From positions 1,260,001 to 1,292,000 of the forward strand of contig CP065004.1 in NCBI GenBank assembly GCA_016700135.1: DNA of 32,000 nucleotides, given 5' to 3'. A program made the translations under genes and the position numbers. Under the pieces are notes generated by a model. That model was not told where the DNA came from, ran no database searches, and saw only the letters and a program-made list of their open reading frames with translations. Of the stretch, positions 3,916 through 31,256 are shown in pieces. Numbering within the stretch: position 1 is the first letter of the stretch; each line of letters starts with the position of its first letter. This stretch comes from Candidatus Saccharimonadota bacterium. Lineage in GTDB: Bacteria; Patescibacteriota; Microgenomatia; UBA1406; GWC2-37-13.

Positions 3916-4095
3916 ACATAAAATATAGCACGGGAGAAGTTAAATAAGAGAAAGAAGTATGTGAGAGAGACCTCAGGGCAAGCTTGTTTCAGGACAATCT
4001 GCTGAGTAAGTATCCTAAAATAAACCTGTCTGAGTATCCTCTTTGGGGAATAAGTAATAATGACTTTCTCTCTTCTTATCCCGTTCAATTTATAA

Positions 4096-4371
4096 TTATT
4101 TTTTAAGGCCTAGTTTTTTTATCAGCTCTTTGTATCGAGCTTCATCAAGTTTCTGAAGATAATTGAGGATTCTGCGTCTCTTTGCAATGACTTTAAGAAG
4201 TCCGCGTCGTGAGTGATTATCTTTCTTATTTCCTTCAAGATGTCCGGTAAGTCTCTGAATTTTGAATGTCAAAAGAGCAACCTGGACCTCAGGTGACCCG
4301 GTGTCGCCTGACTTTTGGGCGAACATATCAATAATTTCCTGTTTGTTTTCTGGTAGTTGTGCTTGTGCCAT
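4096..4371 (-). CDS. rpsO: 30S ribosomal protein S15
   Basis: 91-aa ORF containing ...[19 protein letters not shown]...KKD.HSRRGLL..., typical of S15. It sits upstream of pnp. Confidence 0.95.
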
Positions 4372-4770: not shown

Positions 4771-6180
4771 ATGAAAAAAGTACTTATCACAACATCCATT
4801 CCCTATGTAAACGGAGCTCCGCATATCGGACATGCTCTCGAACTTGTGCAAAGCGATACCATGGCACGGGCATATCGGGAAGACGGATATGACACATATT
4901 TTCTGACGGGAACTGATGAGAATGCACAGAAAAATGTTGAATCTGCCGAAAAAGCCGGGATACCTGTACAAACTCTTGTTGATCAAAACTCAGAGCGTTT
5001 CCAGAATCTGAAAAAGCCGCTGAATCTTTCGTTTGATCAATTTATCCGGACAACTTCAGATAAACATATGAAAGGTGCCCAAAAGCTTTGGAAATTGTGT
5101 GAGAAGGATATTTATAAGAAAAAATACAGCGGGTTGTACTGTGTCGGCTGTGAGACCTTTTACAAAGACGGCGAGTTTGAAAATAATATATGCCCGAACC
5201 ACAATCGCAAACTCGAACTGGTGACTGAAGAAAACTATTTCTTTGCACTTTCCAGGTACTCGGAAAAAATACGTGACGTCATCCAATCGGACATGCTGAA
5301 GATCGATCCGGCATTCAGAAAACAGGAAATGTTGAACTTCATAGACAAAGGTCTTGAAGACTTCTCAATCTCACGTCCCGTGGAGCGTATGAAAGGATGG
5401 GGTGTCCCGGTACCGGGCGATGAAAACCAACGGATGTATGTCTGGTATGATGCACTGGCCAACTACATAACGGCACTTGATTTCGCGGAAAACGGACAAC
5501 TGTTCCGGTCCTACTGGACTGAAAATCCCAATAGGATCCATGTCATCGGAAAAGATATCATCAAGTTCCACGCCATTTACTGGGTCGGCATGCTCCTCTC
5601 TGCAGAGATAATGCTTCCGACACGCGAATATGTGCACGGATTTATTTCCGTATCGGGACAAAAAATGAGCAAATCACTGGGGAATGTCATTGATCCGTAT
5701 GAAGTTGTAGAGAAATTCGGTACCGATGCAGTCAGATATTATCTGTTGAAAGAAATTCCTTCTTTGACTGACGGCGATTTCTCGATAGACCGCATGAAAC
5801 AACTGTATGATGCCGATCTGGCAAATGAGCTCGGAAACCTCGTTTCCCGGGTGACTACATTGGCATCAAAAGACGAATTAACCTTTCAGGCAGATACTGA
5901 AGCCGACAAATATATCCTTGATAAAGCAAAGCACTTTCAATTCAATCAGGCGCTTGAAGACATCTGGAAAATCATCAAAGACCTCAACAAAGAAATAAAT
6001 GAAAAAGAACCCTGGAAGCTGAGTGCCGATGACAGAAAAGGACATCTCGAAAACTGGCTCGGAAAACTATATGGGATTTCACTATCATTAAAGCCGTTTA
6101 TGCCTGATACGGCAGACAAAATCGGGCAGGCTACATCGGGAAAAATCGGGAAAACGGTCCCTCTTTTTCCCCGTATCTGA
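4771..6180 (+). CDS. metG: Methionine--tRNA ligase (short form, no C-terminal tRNA-binding domain)
   Basis: Contains the class I motifs PHIGH and KMSKS, a CVGCE...CPNH zinc knuckle, and an anticodon-binding helical C-terminus. Confidence 0.92.
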   Translation: MKKVLITTSIPYVNGAPHIGHALELVQSDTMARAYREDGYDTYFLTGTDENAQKNVESAEKAGIPVQTLVDQNSERFQNLKKPLNLSFDQFIRTTSDKHMKGAQKLWKLCEKDIYKKKYSGLYCVGCETFYKDGEFENNICPNHNRKLELVTEENYFFALSRYSEKIRDVIQSDMLKIDPAFRKQEMLNFIDKGLEDFSISRPVERMKGWGVPVPGDENQRMYVWYDALANYITALDFAENGQLFRSYWTENPNRIHVIGKDIIKFHAIYWVGMLLSAEIMLPTREYVHGFISVSGQKMSKSLGNVIDPYEVVEKFGTDAVRYYLLKEIPSLTDGDFSIDRMKQLYDADLANELGNLVSRVTTLASKDELTFQADTEADKYILDKAKHFQFNQALEDIWKIIKDLNKEINEKEPWKLSADDRKGHLENWLGKLYGISLSLKPFMPDTADKIGQATSGKIGKTVPLFPRI

Positions 6181-6246
6181 AATCCGGCTTTTCAGACACG
6201 CTCAAGCTCTTCAAAACAGGACACGACCTATCCAATATAAGGTATA

Positions 6247-9457: not shown

Positions 9458-10576
9458 TGAATAAGTTACGAAAGATATGGCACTCATAGGGAACTAACAT
9501 CTATGAGTAAATGGGGAGGAGATCAGCTTCGAGTAATTAGGAGTTATGACTGGCAGTACAATAGAGATCTTATGAAAAAGATACGATCTCTATCAGACTA
9601 CAATCAGTCAGATGTAGCACAAATCAGAAACGATGTTCTGACATTTGCAGAGAAGTACGGGATACAAGCTGCAGTTGATGCATATGGGATATCACGAAGG
9701 ACATTGTTTCGATGGAGGAAGAGACGGCGAGATTCAGAAGGGCAGTTGGATAGCCTGATACCAGAGACAACCAAGCCAAAGACACCCCGACGTATGGAGA
9801 CTCACCCGAAGGTCATATCCTTTATCAAAGAGATTCGAGAACAATACTTTTGTTTGGGAAAGGAGAAGATCAAGCCCTTACTTGATGAGTATTGCCTACA
9901 GGAAGGAATTTCAACTATATCTGAGTCAACCATTGGAAAAGTGATCAAAAGACACAACCTGCAGCGCAAGACCTACCGGATCTATCACAATCCAGCAAGT
10001 GGCTTTGCAAAACGGAAAGTAAAGTACCGACAGAAGGTCAAGCGGTCTCCCAAGGTGGAAGATACCGGATACATTGAGATTGATACCATCACGAAGTTTG
10101 TACACGGAATCAAGCTGTATGTCTTCAATGCAGTGGACATCAAACTCAAATTCCAGTTCTCCTACGGATACTCAAAACTCAACAGCCGAAACGGTGCTGA
10201 TTTTATGAGAAGACTGGAACTAGTATACCCAATACAAGATGGTATAAAAACCATACAAACAGATAACGGCCTCGAGTATCTGGGAAACTTCCATGACTAT
10301 CTGGAAGAAAACAATATCCCACACCTCTTTATCTACCCCAGATGTCCCAAGATCAATGCCTTTATTGAGCGAGCAAACAGAACACTCCAGGAAGAATTTA
10401 TGAACCCCTACATCTATACCAAGTGGACCGGTATCGGATCATTCAATCGTCACCTTATTGAATACCTCGTCTGGTACAATACAAAGCGAGTTCACAAAAG
10501 CCTGAACAATATTTCACCTATGGATTACCTATTATCTATTTTACCTAAAGAGTGCCATATGTATGGAACTCATACA
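9458..10576 (+). mobile_element. IS481-family insertion sequence, copy 1 (1119 bp, apparently intact)
   Basis: Boundaries come from alignment with the inverted copy at 30183-31301. The imperfect terminal inverted repeats are TGAATAAGTTACGAAAGATATGGCACTC (9458-9485) and the reverse complement of 10550-10576 (TGTATGAGTTCCATACATATGGCACTC). No flanking direct repeat was seen. Confidence 0.85.
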
Positions 10577-10633
10577 ACAAGTATATTTTATCATGTTAAC
10601 ATATTAATATGCAATTCATTGAAAATTCTTTAG
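9503..10633 (+). CDS. IS481-family DDE (rve/integrase core) transposase
   Basis: N-terminal HTH (GISRRTLFRWRK) and DDE region (YIEIDTI ... IQTDNGLEY ... FIERANRTLQEE ... YNTKRVHKSL). The ORF reads 57 nt beyond the right IS end before its stop. The real start may be the ATG at 9572 (MKKIRSL). Confidence 0.85.
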   Translation: MSKWGGDQLRVIRSYDWQYNRDLMKKIRSLSDYNQSDVAQIRNDVLTFAEKYGIQAAVDAYGISRRTLFRWRKRRRDSEGQLDSLIPETTKPKTPRRMETHPKVISFIKEIREQYFCLGKEKIKPLLDEYCLQEGISTISESTIGKVIKRHNLQRKTYRIYHNPASGFAKRKVKYRQKVKRSPKVEDTGYIEIDTITKFVHGIKLYVFNAVDIKLKFQFSYGYSKLNSRNGADFMRRLELVYPIQDGIKTIQTDNGLEYLGNFHDYLEENNIPHLFIYPRCPKINAFIERANRTLQEEFMNPYIYTKWTGIGSFNRHLIEYLVWYNTKRVHKSLNNISPMDYLLSILPKECHMYGTHTTSIFYHVNILICNSLKIL

Positions 10634-10841: not shown

Positions 10842-11556
10842 GGCTCTAGACTAGCACATTAACAATTTGTAATAGTTCATTGTAAAGGATCGATGGGGAT
10901 TTGCTCCATCTCCATTCACACTCTTTCAAGTGTAATGGAAAGTTTTTCTTTACACCATTGAACTTAACGAGACGTCTTTTACAAAAGGACCAGAATGACT
11001 CTATGCCATTGATATGGACCCCTTTTGTATTTGAGAACTCATTTTTCTTGTGATTGATTCTCAAATGTTTGTCATACCCGACATCAACAAGTCCGTTGTA
11101 TCCGCTCCACGAATCTGAATATACAGTACTGTTCAAGTCAATCTTTCCCTTCATAACAGCATGTAGCGTTCTTCTTTTACAGTTTGGAATGATACGAGTA
11201 AATACACGTCCTTGACGCTCATATATCCCAAATACTACCTGCTTAAATGACGTCCCACGACCTCTTTTACTTGACTTGCCTCTCATCCTTCGAGGTCCAA
11301 AGTATGATTCATCAATTTCTATCTCACCACCAACATATCGTTGCATCTGGTGCACTTGGTGATGATATATGAGTTGACGAATATTATTGTAATATTTGTT
11401 GACTGTATTGCGGTTGAGACCCAAAATACCAGAGGTCTGTGTAGCACTCAGATCGTGTGCAAAACACCATAGTATCTTTTTTCTCTTGTATTTTGATATC
11501 GGCCTATTGTTACAAACCATACCTCTAGTTTAGCACTACTCTGCTAGTCTAGAGCC
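10842..11556 (-). mobile_element. IS1595-family (ISXO2-like) insertion sequence, 715 bp
   Basis: Perfect 15-bp terminal inverted repeats: GGCTCTAGACTAGCA at 10842-10856 and its reverse complement at 11542-11556. Flanked by TTAACAA direct repeats, with a single transposase ORF inside. Confidence 0.85.
10846..11520 (-). CDS. IS1595-family DDE transposase
   Basis: 224 aa with IEIDESYFG ... VYSDSWSGY ... INGIESFWSFCKRRL, characteristic of the DDE_Tnp_IS1595 / ISXO2-like family. Its stop codon lies inside the left inverted repeat. Confidence 0.85.
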   Translation of the reverse strand: MVCNNRPISKYKRKKILWCFAHDLSATQTSGILGLNRNTVNKYYNNIRQLIYHHQVHQMQRYVGGEIEIDESYFGPRRMRGKSSKRGRGTSFKQVVFGIYERQGRVFTRIIPNCKRRTLHAVMKGKIDLNSTVYSDSWSGYNGLVDVGYDKHLRINHKKNEFSNTKGVHINGIESFWSFCKRRLVKFNGVKKNFPLHLKECEWRWSKSPSILYNELLQIVNVLV

Positions 11557-16863: not shown

Positions 16864-16926
16864 AATGTCTGGAGCGGATTTATCAAGTGTACCAACGACT
16901 AACGTCTATAAACCAACAGTCTCTTT

Positions 16927-17109
16927 TGGTGGCTGGGGAGAGAGTCGAACTCTCGACCTATCGCTTACCTGCCCGCCGAACTGTGGCTAAGGGGAGAATC
17001 GAACTCCCGACCTAACGCTTATGAAACGTTCGCTCTAACCACTGAGCTACTTAGCCTTTCTCAGGCAGGCGCGGTGAAACGATCGCTCTAACCACTGAGC
17101 TACCCAGCC
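16927..17109 (-). tRNA. Interrupted (outer) tRNA gene: 5' half at 17075-17109, 107-nt insertion at 16968-17074, 3' half at 16927-16967 with encoded CCA. The anticodon is CAT if the loop is rejoined as TTCA|TAA
   Basis: Minus strand reads GGCTGGG TA GCTC AGTGGTTA GAGC G ATCGT TTCA [107 nt] TAA GCGAT AGGTC GAGAG TTCGACT CTCTC CCCAGCC A CCA. The acceptor and anticodon stems pair perfectly across the interruption. Confidence 0.6.
16984..17056 (-). tRNA. Complete 73-nt tRNA with anticodon CAT (elongator Met or Ile2-type; not initiator-like), nested inside the outer tRNA
   Basis: GGCTAAG TA GCTC AGTGGTTA GAGC G AACGT TTCATAA GCGTT AGGTC GGGAG TTCGATT CTCCC CTTAGCC A. It forms a full cloverleaf with a G1-C72 pair and has no encoded CCA. 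Confidence 0.85.
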
Positions 17110-17140
17110 ATGCTTCCCATCGACCATCTCGAACTTGTAG

Positions 17141-17148
17141 ATTATAAT
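17141..17148. promoter_or_regulatory. Palindromic -10-like element ATTATAAT between the divergent tRNA locus and the GT2 gene
   Basis: On the + strand, TATAAT (17143-17148) ends 7 nt before the ATG at 17156. On the - strand, TATAAT (reverse complement of 17141-17146) lies about 31 nt upstream of the outer tRNA 5' end. Confidence 0.4.
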
Positions 17149-17155
17149 ATATTCT

Positions 17156-18073
17156 ATGACTGTAAACAAGCCGACTGAAAGGGAGATAGAGCTTTCTATC
17201 ATCATCCTTTCATACAATACTGAAGCTCTGACACGGCAGACAATCGAATCAATTTATGAATCGACGGAACTTGATACAAACAGCTTCGAAATAATTGTGC
17301 TCGACAACGCTTCAACCGATAATTCGTTACAAATGCTCCGGAAACTTGAAAAAAACCATCCTAACCTCCATGTCATAGAAAGTAAAGAAAATACCGGTTT
17401 TTCAAAAGGAAATAACATAGCGTCAAAGCAAGCTAAAGGCACATATTTTCTGTTTCTCAACTCAGATGTCATCGTTCAGGAAAAAGGAATTGATAACCTC
17501 CTGAATTACCTCAAAGATCATGACAAAACTGCCCAATTTGCCGGCGGAAAGCTGCTCAATAAGGATATATCAGATCAGGCTTCTTGCGGTCCGTTTTATA
17601 CCCTTCCGGTTGTTTTCGGTGCACTGTTTTTACGGGGAGATTACTGGGGTTTGACTCGGTATTCGCCTGATGAGGTCAAACGGGTTGATTGGGTATCGGG
17701 AGCCTGTCTGTTGACGAAAAAAGAGTATTTTGAACAAGTCGGAGGATTTGACGAAGGAATATTCATGTATATGGAGGAAATAGACTTGTTGTATCGATCT
17801 AATAAGCTGGGCTATCAGACGTTTTTCGTGCCTCAAGCCCGGTTTATTCATCTCGGCTCTGCCTCAAGCGGCGGCAAAACGTACCCGATATTACAGGTGT
17901 ATAGAGGCTTTTTATACTTCTATAAAAAGCACTACGGTCCCGCTTCTGTTACAGTTCTCAAAGGTATGTTACAATTGAAAGCACGGATAGCTATGATTCT
18001 CGGTAAACTCACCGGAAAGAACTATCTTATAGAAACTTATGGAAAAGCTCAAGAAATCGCTTCAATGGCTTGA
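17156..18073 (+). CDS. Family 2 glycosyltransferase
   Basis: LSIIILSYNT..., IIVLDNASTDNS, ENTGFSKGNN and FLFLNSDV are GT2 (GT-A fold) motifs. Confidence 0.85.
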   Translation: MTVNKPTEREIELSIIILSYNTEALTRQTIESIYESTELDTNSFEIIVLDNASTDNSLQMLRKLEKNHPNLHVIESKENTGFSKGNNIASKQAKGTYFLFLNSDVIVQEKGIDNLLNYLKDHDKTAQFAGGKLLNKDISDQASCGPFYTLPVVFGALFLRGDYWGLTRYSPDEVKRVDWVSGACLLTKKEYFEQVGGFDEGIFMYMEEIDLLYRSNKLGYQTFFVPQARFIHLGSASSGGKTYPILQVYRGFLYFYKKHYGPASVTVLKGMLQLKARIAMILGKLTGKNYLIETYGKAQEIASMA

Positions 18074-30173: not shown

Positions 30174-31256
30174 TCAACTTTCTGTATGAGTTCCATACAT
30201 ATGGCACTCTTTTAGTAAAATAGATAATAGGTAATCCATAGGTGAAATATTGTTCAGGCTTTTGTGAACTCGCTTTGTATTGTACCAGACGAGGTATTCA
30301 ATAAGGTGACGATTGAATGATCCGATACCGGTCCACTTGGTATAGATGTAGGGGTTCATAAATTCTTCCTGGAGTGTTCTGTTTGCTCGCTCAATAAAGG
30401 CATTGATCTTGGGACATCTGGGGTAGATAAAGAGGTGTGGGATATTGTTTTCTTCCAGATAGTCATGGAAGTTTCCCAGATACTCGAGGCCGTTATCTGT
30501 TTGTATGGTTTTATACCATCTTGTATTGGGTATACTAGTTCCAGTCTTCTCATAAAATCAGCACCGTTTCGGCTGTTGAGTTTTGAGTATCCGTAGGAGA
30601 ACTGGAATTTGAGTTTGATGTCCACTGCATTGAAGACATACAGCTTGATTCCGTGTACAAACTTCGTGATGGTATCAATCTCAATGTATCCGGTATCTTC
30701 CACCTTGGGAGACCGCTTGACCTTCTGTCGGTACTTTACTTTCCGTTTTGCAAAGCCACTTGCTGGATTGTGATAGATCCGGTAGGTCTTGCGCTGCAGG
30801 TTGTGTCTTTTGATCACTTTTCCAATGGTTGACTCAGATATAGTTGAAATTCCTTCCTGTAGGCAATACTCATCAAGTAAGGGCTTGATCTTCTCCTTTC
30901 CCAAACAAAAGTATTGTTCTCGAATCTCTTTGATAAAGGATATGACCTTCGGGTGAGTCTCCATACGTCGGGGTGTCTTTGGCTTGGTTGTCTCTGGTAT
31001 CAGGCTATCCAACTGCCCTTCTGAATCTCGCCGTCTCTTCCTCCATCGAAACAATGTCCTTCGTGATATCCCATATGCATCAACTGCAGCTTGTATCCCG
31101 TACTTCTCTGCAAATGTCAGAACATCGTTTCTGATTTGTGCTACATCTGACTGATTGTAGTCTGATAGAGATCGTATCTTTTTTCATAAGATCTCTATTG
31201 TACTGCCAGTCATAACTCCTAATTACTCGAAGCTGATCTCCTCCCCATTTACTCAT
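30174..31256 (-). pseudogene. Frameshifted IS481-family transposase gene
   Basis: Relative to copy 1: A5 becomes A6 just after the MKK codons (+ strand T-run at 31175-31180), and A5 becomes A4 in GGTATAAAAACC (+ strand T-run at 30510-30513). These split the ORF into pieces, including 30356-31054 and 30174-30359. Confidence 0.75.

Follow-up and report, generated by a model that had tools for sequence, protein, structure and literature searches.

A cognate tRNA-Met gene nested in a split tRNA-Met gene of a Patescibacteria chromosome is probably the cargo of a 107-bp mobile element

A 107-bp insert with a complete tRNA-Met splits the resident tRNA-Met gene

The window analysed here comprises 32,000 nucleotides of the Candidatus Saccharimonadota bacterium genome GCA_016700135.1 (contig CP065004.1, positions 1,260,001 to 1,292,000), and it contains on its minus strand, at 16927-17109, a complete tRNA gene nested inside the anticodon loop of another tRNA gene. 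We found, by comparison with relatives, that the outer halves are the resident tRNA-Met gene, freshly disrupted, and that the insert holds a tRNA-Met of the same anticodon between two GC-rich ends. The reading that we favour, and hold to be probable, is that the insert is a non-autonomous mobile DNA element of 107 bp, which split the resident gene between nucleotides 35 and 36 and whose cognate tRNA-Met cargo replaces the broken host. With similar nests in many other genomes, the nested-tRNA element appears to represent an undescribed and abundant class of mobile element in Patescibacteria.

Re-reading of the minus strand confirmed the whole layout given in the original prediction, including the cut in the outer anticodon loop, which falls at 35/36 (Table 1). 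The junctions at 17074/17075 and 16967/16968 are exact, and the rejoined outer halves have the anticodon loop TTCATAA. ARAGORN and Rfam call the inner gene alone at this locus; all of its stem pairs (21/21) are formed, and it is presumed to be functional. It differs from the rejoined outer gene at 9 of 73 positions, namely four compensated pairs (5:68, 6:67, 28:42 and 50:64) and one T-loop base. The two tRNAs are 88% identical with identical D arms, and CCA is encoded in the outer gene only. On direct reading, both genes lack initiator features and resemble elongator tRNA-Met. A joined outer RNA would read ...CGUUUCA followed by UAAGCGAU... across the junction, and its outer-specific bases would be G5, G6, U28:A42, C67 and C68. 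The 186-nt stretch is predicted to fold into two nested cloverleaves (-80.5 kcal/mol, z = -5.1), a value equalled by none of 200 shuffles.

The ends of the window element form the pair CCTGCCCGCC/GGCAGGCGGG. Its left end, CCGCGCCTGCC, is the family consensus CCCGCCTGCC with one added G, and this CCGCGCC variant also occurs at locus L226. Across all relatives, the 48-nt region upstream of the tRNA hardly varies; a consensus promoter scan called no full minus-strand promoter.

Table 1. Parts of the nested tRNA-Met locus in the window
Feature	Position	Strand	Remarks
Outer 5′ half of the resident tRNA-Met, to anticodon-loop nt 35	17075-17109	-	Equals the 5′ part of the uninterrupted orthologue; GGCTGGG TA GCTC AGTGGTTA GAGC G ATCGT TTCA
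Inserted element (probably mobile), 107 bp: left end and spacer, cargo tRNA, spacer and right end	16968-17074	-	
Left end CCGCGCCTGCC and spacer TGAGAAA	17057-17074	-	18-nt flank CCGCGCCTGCCTGAGAAA; end motif CCYGCCYGCC conserved in 44 distinct elements
Cargo tRNA-Met(CAU), complete, 73 nt, elongator type, no encoded CCA	16984-17056	-	ARAGORN; Rfam RF00005, 73.3 bits
Spacer CAGTTC and right end GGCGGGCAGG	16968-16983	-	16-nt flank CAGTTCGGCGGGCAGG; conserved motif GGCRGGCRGG; predicted to pair with the left end
Outer 3′ half of the resident tRNA-Met, from nt 36, with discriminator A and encoded CCA	16927-16967	-	Equals the 3′ part of the uninterrupted orthologue; TAA GCGAT AGGTC GAGAG TTCGACT CTCTC CCCAGCC A CCA
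TATAAT hexamer, likely -10 box of the resident promoter (inferred)	17141-17146	-	31 nt upstream of the outer 5′ end

Empty and filled sites in relatives

Contigs with homologues of the window riboflavin kinase were taken as relatives, and the locus was compared by gene order. The riboflavin kinase gene (ribK) starts 64 nt downstream of the tRNA, its homologues are labelled Woesebacteria and Roizmanbacteria, and the synteny is kept, with GT2 divergent from tRNA-ribK-rmlC. In L107-L113 and L237-L240, whose riboflavin kinases are 66-89% identical to that of the window, one uninterrupted tRNA-Met with the loop TTCATAA occupies the same spot. The rejoined outer halves show no difference from this gene in L237 (73/73) and two differences each in L107 and L110, and comparison of empty with filled sites gives an insert of exactly 107 bp, with no base duplicated or lost. 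Since the empty sites match the rejoined outer halves, the window carries a recent and precise 107-bp insertion. They also prove that TTCA joined to TAA recreates the original loop, as had been proposed; other outer splice points, which would give CAC, CGU or GGU, were rejected because the empty sites fix the join at TTCA and TAA.

It had further been argued that the compensated differences between the two genes mark the outer one as a maintained RNA. This argument does not hold, because the outer gene is the resident one, identical to uninterrupted orthologues, and the compensated differences arose before the insertion, while both were ordinary functional tRNAs. The intact look of the outer gene follows from the recency of the insertion.

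The inner gene differs from the host at nine positions while the host differs from its orthologues at none to two, and thus it is not a recent copy of the host; copying at the moment of insertion was rejected on the same ground (nine differences to the host, zero between host and orthologue). The inner tRNA shares 90% identity with tRNA-Met genes resident in the clade, so its donor was a related lineage, and these comparisons identify it as an immigrant orthologue, not a copy from this host. A local rearrangement, in which a nested or tandem duplication with deletions arose in place and no DNA was imported, could draw on the 88% identity and the shared D arm of the two genes. It is nevertheless very improbable, because the inner gene has its nine differences while the host equals its orthologues, the identical 107 bp are present in a distant genome (L235), and the end motifs of the flanks are common to dozens of unrelated loci.

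L235 comes from another sample and an independent assembly, and it carries the insert at the same bond with 107 of 107 positions identical. Between the window and L235, the host tRNA is identical at 71 of 73 positions, ribK and the adjacent GT2 DNA at 74%, and the 3′ trailer at ~45%. The probability of zero changes in the 34 non-tRNA nucleotides of the insert at 26% divergence is ~4e-5. By both flanking proteins, the nearest relatives of the window (L107 and L110) and of L235 (L113 and L112) have empty sites. An identical insert in a diverged genome, together with empty sites in closer relatives, indicates recent and site-specific horizontal spread. The window and L235 thereby display the marks of homing-type behaviour, that is, the same site in diverged genomes, a patchy distribution and near-identical copies.

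Metagenome assemblies can collapse or chimerise near-identical repeats, and two tRNA-Met alleles or strains might have been joined in this way. However, the structure recurs identically in the independent assembly of L235, its 34 non-tRNA bases are absent from the empty alleles, and there are more than 100 analogous loci from many studies. We conclude that the nest is not a misassembly, and an artefact of this kind is scarcely credible.

A family of tRNA-in-tRNA nests with conserved ends

Searching one genome per species for pairs of D arms that lie too close together for tandem genes gave 106 loci, at least ~55 of which are nests by manual reading. A scan of metagenomes used only the inner D arm and the right end as anchors and gave at least 120 loci. 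Nearly all nests of the genome scan are labelled Patescibacteria (Microgenomates, Parcubacteria groups, Saccharibacteria and Berkelbacteria), and the tRNA types are Met, Val (CAC, GAC, UAC), Ile (GAU, UAU), Thr (UGU, CGU, GGU), Arg and Ala. Several end families exist. The window belongs to type A, with the ends CCYGCCYGCC ... GGCRGGCRGG, and exact excision at type-A ends yields a canonical tRNA with the anticodon of the cargo. Type-A inserts interrupt their hosts at 33/34, 35/36 or 37/38, or at the D-stem site 23/24 of some Thr genes, and this end family was found in at least eight anticodon classes. The counts below refer to 44 distinct type-A elements, which are among the metagenome matches listed and were picked without regard to the host.

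In L161, L200 and L230, ends and spacer of the tRNA-Thr(UGU) type are inserted in the D stem (between AGA and GC, at 23/24) and the host anticodon loop is intact. The same ends and spacer lie in the tRNA-Thr anticodon loop in L103 and L209. The D-stem insertions imply that the choice of site is wider than the anticodon loop.

The nests are recursive: automatic detection gave two levels, and visual inspection of L010 three to four, and the outer shells are more damaged. In self-nested loci (L120 at ~3990-4190; L106, L188 and L201), the host is nearly identical to the cargo and is followed by the same spacer and right end once more, so the element has entered its own cargo type more than once.

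The same end family would also be hard to explain if no mobility machinery existed at all, and the nest spread by DNA uptake and homologous recombination with the tRNA halves as homology arms, the ends serving only to fold and process the inner tRNA. Genes for DNA uptake are common in Patescibacteria, the tRNA halves are nearly identical across the clade, and recombination would give an insertion without duplication, and an identical insert at the same site in two diverged genomes as seen here. However, the hosts of the window and L235 differ at two positions, one 25 nt upstream of the junction and the other 28 nt downstream, and each state is that of the empty relatives in the same lineage. 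With no co-conversion of host flanks visible between these two genomes, the arms would have to be shorter than 25 nt. Moreover, one end family with its spacer occurs at different sites of one tRNA type, as in the Thr loci above, and its presence in at least eight anticodon classes cannot be produced by recombination between homologous genes. The ends are also much more conserved than a clamp helix requires, and they carry fixed mismatches. We regard spread by recombination as quite unlikely.

Other nests differ from type A. Type B nests (L037, L046, L077, L092, L098 and L102) have the ends TTCACCCCG...CGGGGCA(A/G)G, and their host loop can usually not be restored. Type C nests (L010, L016, L061, L075 and L083) have long AT-rich complementary flanks in tRNA-Ile genes. 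In type D nests (L002, L029, L033 and L080), which are from Saccharibacteria, the host anticodon stem runs into the flank helix and no loop remains. The inner tRNAs of L016, L071, L076, L082 and L097 have the T loop TCCGAxx, which places a C at the normally invariant position 55.

A perfect or near-perfect palindrome of 20 nt, CCTGCCTGCCGG(C/T)AGGCAGG, which shares its half-sites with the element ends, is scattered through Patescibacteria DNA (L040:523-543, L103:2243-2263, L045:3159-3179, L082:5946-5966 and 6210-6230, L097:541 and 717, and L010:2900-2940). Some copies sit in D stems and T arms of tRNA shells that were already disrupted, others away from any recognised RNA gene. That these palindromes are parts of known RNA genes was rejected, as Rfam finds only tRNAs in ten such loci; they may be a cargo-less form of the same mobile family.

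Selection on the cargo and decay of the host

We compared the intactness of inner and outer genes in the 44 type-A elements. All 21 stem pairs are formed in 41 of the inner tRNAs but in only 11 of the hosts (Fisher p = 3e-11). Six further hosts show one or two defects, and in ~27 the damage is severe and consists of mismatches, deletions or additional inserted hairpins. Some hosts have mutated anticodons (CAC to TAT in L142, TGT to TGC in L225), and between loci the cargo tRNAs share 0.81-0.97 similarity and the host halves 0.5-0.8. Free decay of the outer halves in relatives, which the original prediction had named as evidence against a maintained outer gene, was thus seen in most hosts, uncompensated changes included, and not in the 11 intact ones. 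Judged by these comparisons, selection acts on the cargo and not on the host.

All 33 inserts whose excision restores a host hold an intact tRNA, and the host anticodon equals the inner anticodon in all 29 readable hosts, as expected if cells tolerate only those insertions that supply the matching spare. A motif-independent search yielded 293 canonical tRNAs and 34 nests, but no anticodon loop with a genuine short insert lacking a cargo. On these counts, a cognate cargo is obligatory across the family.

The element ends are imperfect inverted repeats (8/10) with fixed mismatches. Two dominant end pairs, with 15 and 14 cases, are mutually reverse-complementary, and each occurs with several tRNA types. 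At the two variable end positions, the combinations are T.G in 23, C.A in 19, C:G in one and T:A in no case, so there is no Watson-Crick covariation. Given that the end pairs occur in both orientations and do not covary, they do not provide the one-orientation transcript signal of an RNA-level intron, and they seem to act as DNA and not as an RNA signal.

Evidence for and against splicing of the outer gene

Formal and manual searches for known intron classes were negative. The bulge-helix-bulge (BHB) motif in its hBHBh′ form, with a 4-bp helix between 3-nt bulges at the two splice sites, was found in none of the 44 elements, with two of four pairs in the central helix of the window locus; alternative registers tried by hand also failed, and a BHB intron was rejected. 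In agreement with the original prediction, which had judged the insert not to be a group I intron, an Rfam search of 16880-17160 at the gathering threshold and at E up to 10 found only the inner tRNA and no group I or other ribozyme. A group I intron was rejected because there is no catalytic core, whose paired regions P3-P9 take up ~100 nt or more, and just 34 nt of the insert are not tRNA. Under the group I boundary rule, the insert does end in G, but the 5′ exon of the window ends in A (TTCA) instead of the U that forms the U.G pair of P1, and across the family the 5′ exons end in A, G, T or C. No endonuclease of the EndA family and no RNA ligase were found among the open reading frames (ORFs) of the 32-kb window in a Pfam scan.

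The insert could still be a true tRNA intron, cut at the base of its GC-rich helix, with the outer exons joined by a bacterial, non-BHB form of splicing, so that each gene would yield two tRNA-Met; such an intron would carry a tRNA as some archaeal introns carry small RNAs. The exact junctions would agree with this, as would the TTCATAA loop and perfect cloverleaf obtained on excision, the nested double cloverleaf as minimum-energy fold, and the fully intact quarter or so of the hosts. In addition, similar short hairpins break the D and T arms of neighbouring tRNA sequences, which recalls the multi-intron tRNAs of archaea. However, the intactness of the outer gene in the window is accounted for by recency, as close relatives have empty sites, and across the family hosts decay while cargo does not (11/44 against 41/44 intact). 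Working splicing is hard to square with the lack of cargo-less inserts in otherwise intact tRNAs (0 against 33-34 with cargo), and the short palindromes within tRNA sequences all lie in already-disrupted shells. End motifs occur equally in both orientations to transcription and without Watson-Crick covariation, and the junctions carry no BHB (0/44), ribozyme or group I signal. Type D nests, and usually those of type B, destroy the host anticodon loop beyond restoration, and three to four shells of one anticodon would be useless in ~1 Mb genomes. Weighing both sides, we consider an intron unlikely. We infer that the outer gene is not spliced, and the insertion most likely inactivates the resident tRNA-Met.

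The probable course of insertion and expression

Under the mobile-element reading, an element with GC-rich ends has entered the single resident tRNA-Met(CAU) gene between its nucleotides 35 and 36, leaving no scar. The cell would survive since the cargo tRNA-Met, brought from a related lineage, takes over from the split host. The whole nest would probably be transcribed from the resident promoter, with the complementary ends clamping the flanks and the inner cloverleaf folding independently. Together with the outer anticodon stem, the ends could form an imperfect duplex of ~20 bp, which would stop the near-identical outer and inner halves from mispairing. By analogy with established tRNA maturation, RNase P and RNase Z would free the inner tRNA, and CCA would be added enzymatically, because the cargo has no encoded CCA. 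The outer fragments would be discarded, and the outer halves would decay over evolutionary time. An enzyme encoded elsewhere most likely recognises the ends at the level of DNA. The target is recreated by the cargo, and the element is therefore itself open to re-invasion, leading to Russian-doll tRNA genes.

A more speculative extension, which we think improbable, is that the cargo tRNA serves as a homing device, its sequence or cloverleaf (as RNA or single-stranded DNA) guiding the element to the cognate gene in a self-retargeting transposition. Such guidance would explain why all readable pairs of host and cargo are cognate, why elements nest in themselves, why one end family is found in at least eight anticodon classes, and why the same bond was used in two genomes. 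More modestly, elements may insert at random into tRNA genes and survive only when the cargo matches.

Several points weigh against a mobile element with an unspliced host. No mobilising enzyme was found among the window ORFs or the genes recurring near nests, and no convincing autonomous copy emerged from a search for elements with an ORF between the same ends at a spacing of 250-5000 bp. Nor does this reading account for how each tRNA type got its cargo, or for the presence of both end orientations in several types. Type-A inserts are exact, and excision would restore a perfect anticodon loop, as for a true intron; the element ends are always complementary enough for a helix, which would allow a function in RNA. 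Hosts would also decay if they were spliced but made redundant by the cargo. Finally, all samples were gathered with patterns anchored on one common D-arm sequence, and the census is partial.

Other candidates for the route or the enzyme were considered. A gene for a divergent XerC/D-like tyrosine recombinase (~290 aa) lies near tRNA sites in 11 loci (L005, L010, L030, L083, L087, L093, L146, L165, L174, L196 and L206), nine of which are tRNA-Ile(UAU) nest loci. It is the only mobility-type family recurring near nests; as a partner enzyme it was set aside, because the loci are mostly of tRNA-Ile(UAU), which probably reflects conserved synteny. Viral contigs, searched for a phage vector, gave no match to a first pattern and one chance match to a second. 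Integron-like or Campbell-type integration of a circle, and composites of two palindromes, were rejected by reasoning, as the expected junctions differ from those seen. A Helitron- or IS91-like target between A and T fits the window and several hosts; it was rejected because junctions between G and T, T and T, C and C, and A and G also occur.

Comparison with known systems

Temperate phages, integrative and conjugative elements and genomic islands that target tRNA genes resemble the present element in several respects: they are mobile and site-specific, often enter the anticodon or T loop, and are rendered harmless by sequence that they bring. They are, however, kilobases long, encode a tyrosine or serine integrase and duplicate only a 3′ segment as the direct repeats attL and attR, whereas the element here has 107 bp, no ORF and no direct repeats at its junctions, and the whole tRNA is nested in the split host. 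Among our scan matches, L012, L025, L081 and L057 (Micromonospora, Mycobacterium) have a truncated tRNA 5′ part and anticodon arm followed by a full tRNA. These actinobacterial matches look like ordinary partial duplications left by integrative elements and not like nests, and L012, L025 and L081 exemplify that pattern.

An archaeal tRNA-Trp intron carries a C/D box RNA. Archaeal BHB introns include those of multi-intron tRNAs, and intron transposition has occurred in Thermoproteales (PMC4033280). Like the present inserts, these introns are short, lie in the anticodon loop and at non-canonical sites, have relatives in different tRNAs and may carry a functional RNA. In contrast, the nests are bacterial, lack a BHB at 44 junction pairs, have orientation-independent ends, always hold a cognate tRNA, and have decaying hosts. 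Bacterial group I introns are known from cyanobacterial tRNA-Leu(UAA) and tRNA-fMet, Azoarcus tRNA-Ile and Agrobacterium tRNA-Arg (PMC4033280). They share with the insert a patchy distribution in bacteria, a place in the anticodon loop and the absence of duplication, but differ from it in what was found here, namely 34 non-tRNA nucleotides without a catalytic core or an Rfam match at E = 10, and a 5′ exon ending in A.

Miniature inverted-repeat transposable elements (MITEs), REP/BIME (RAYT) sequences, Rickettsia palindromic elements and the IS200/IS605-derived PATEs are likewise tiny and non-coding, have imperfect inverted-repeat ends and many copies per clade, and are presumably mobilised in trans. 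A further parallel is the cargo-less 20-nt palindrome with the half-sites of the present ends, which is scattered through the same genomes as the nests. To our knowledge, no element of the families named brings along a copy of the gene that it targets. Target duplications, as made by DDE-type MITEs, are not seen here. IS200/IS605 elements also lack a target duplication, but they insert next to a fixed 4-5-nt target, while the left flanks here are TTCA, TTTG, CTGA, CTTA, CACA, GACA, (G)GCT and TAGA. Furthermore, they have separate subterminal hairpins, whereas the two ends here pair with each other, and no Y1 transposase was found in the 32-kb window.

Homing introns and inteins resemble the element in the exact reuse of a site in diverged genomes, in patchy, near-identical copies, and in the neutralised insertion into an essential gene, and twintrons and nested transposons resemble it in the nesting of an element in a copy of itself. 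Introns and inteins neutralise the insertion by splicing, usually with a homing endonuclease; here there is a spare gene, no encoded endonuclease and no co-conversion of flanks.

Implications

The original prediction knew of no described bacterial arrangement of this kind, and we too found no description of nested tRNA genes in bacteria in the openly accessible full-text literature. A 2014 review credits bacterial tRNA genes with no structural diversity beyond group I and II introns (PMC4033280), and the nests, if our reading is true, would contradict this textbook uniformity. Selfish elements are known to persist within essential genes in two ways, by removing themselves through splicing (introns, inteins) or by bringing a duplicate of part of the target (integrative elements); the nests would add a third. 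The element would carry a complete working copy of its target, which recreates the target and permits endless re-invasion. It would then be a widespread driver of horizontal tRNA gene replacement in Patescibacteria, a large and poorly understood part of bacterial diversity. The stacked shells would represent dated layers of neutrally decaying DNA, usable for mutation spectra, and the inserting enzyme would perform a scar-free, site-specific insertion of ~100 bp into structured DNA, with possible practical interest. If instead the outer gene were spliced, a non-BHB tRNA splicing in bacteria would be at least equally important. For annotation, the pipelines silently give the innermost gene only, and the shells could pass for introns, split tRNAs or pseudogenes.

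Genomic setting of the window

The window is an ordinary stretch of a Patescibacteria-type chromosome, with genes for PNPase, methionyl-tRNA synthetase (MetRS), a class A penicillin-binding protein, Dtd, RarA, RmlC, a stand-alone riboflavin kinase, glycosyltransferases and Lon, and some insertion sequence (IS) copies. An IS with an rve-type integrase is present as two inverted copies, at 9503-10633 on the plus strand and ~30356-31054 on the minus strand, with identical 97-nt stretches at 9782 and, on the opposite strand, near 30975. These copies flank the entire region that holds the nested tRNA. An IS1595-family transposase gene (10846-11520, minus strand) adjoins the first copy. The MetRS gene (4771-6180, plus strand) lies 11 kb from the invaded tRNA-Met, which is probably coincidental.

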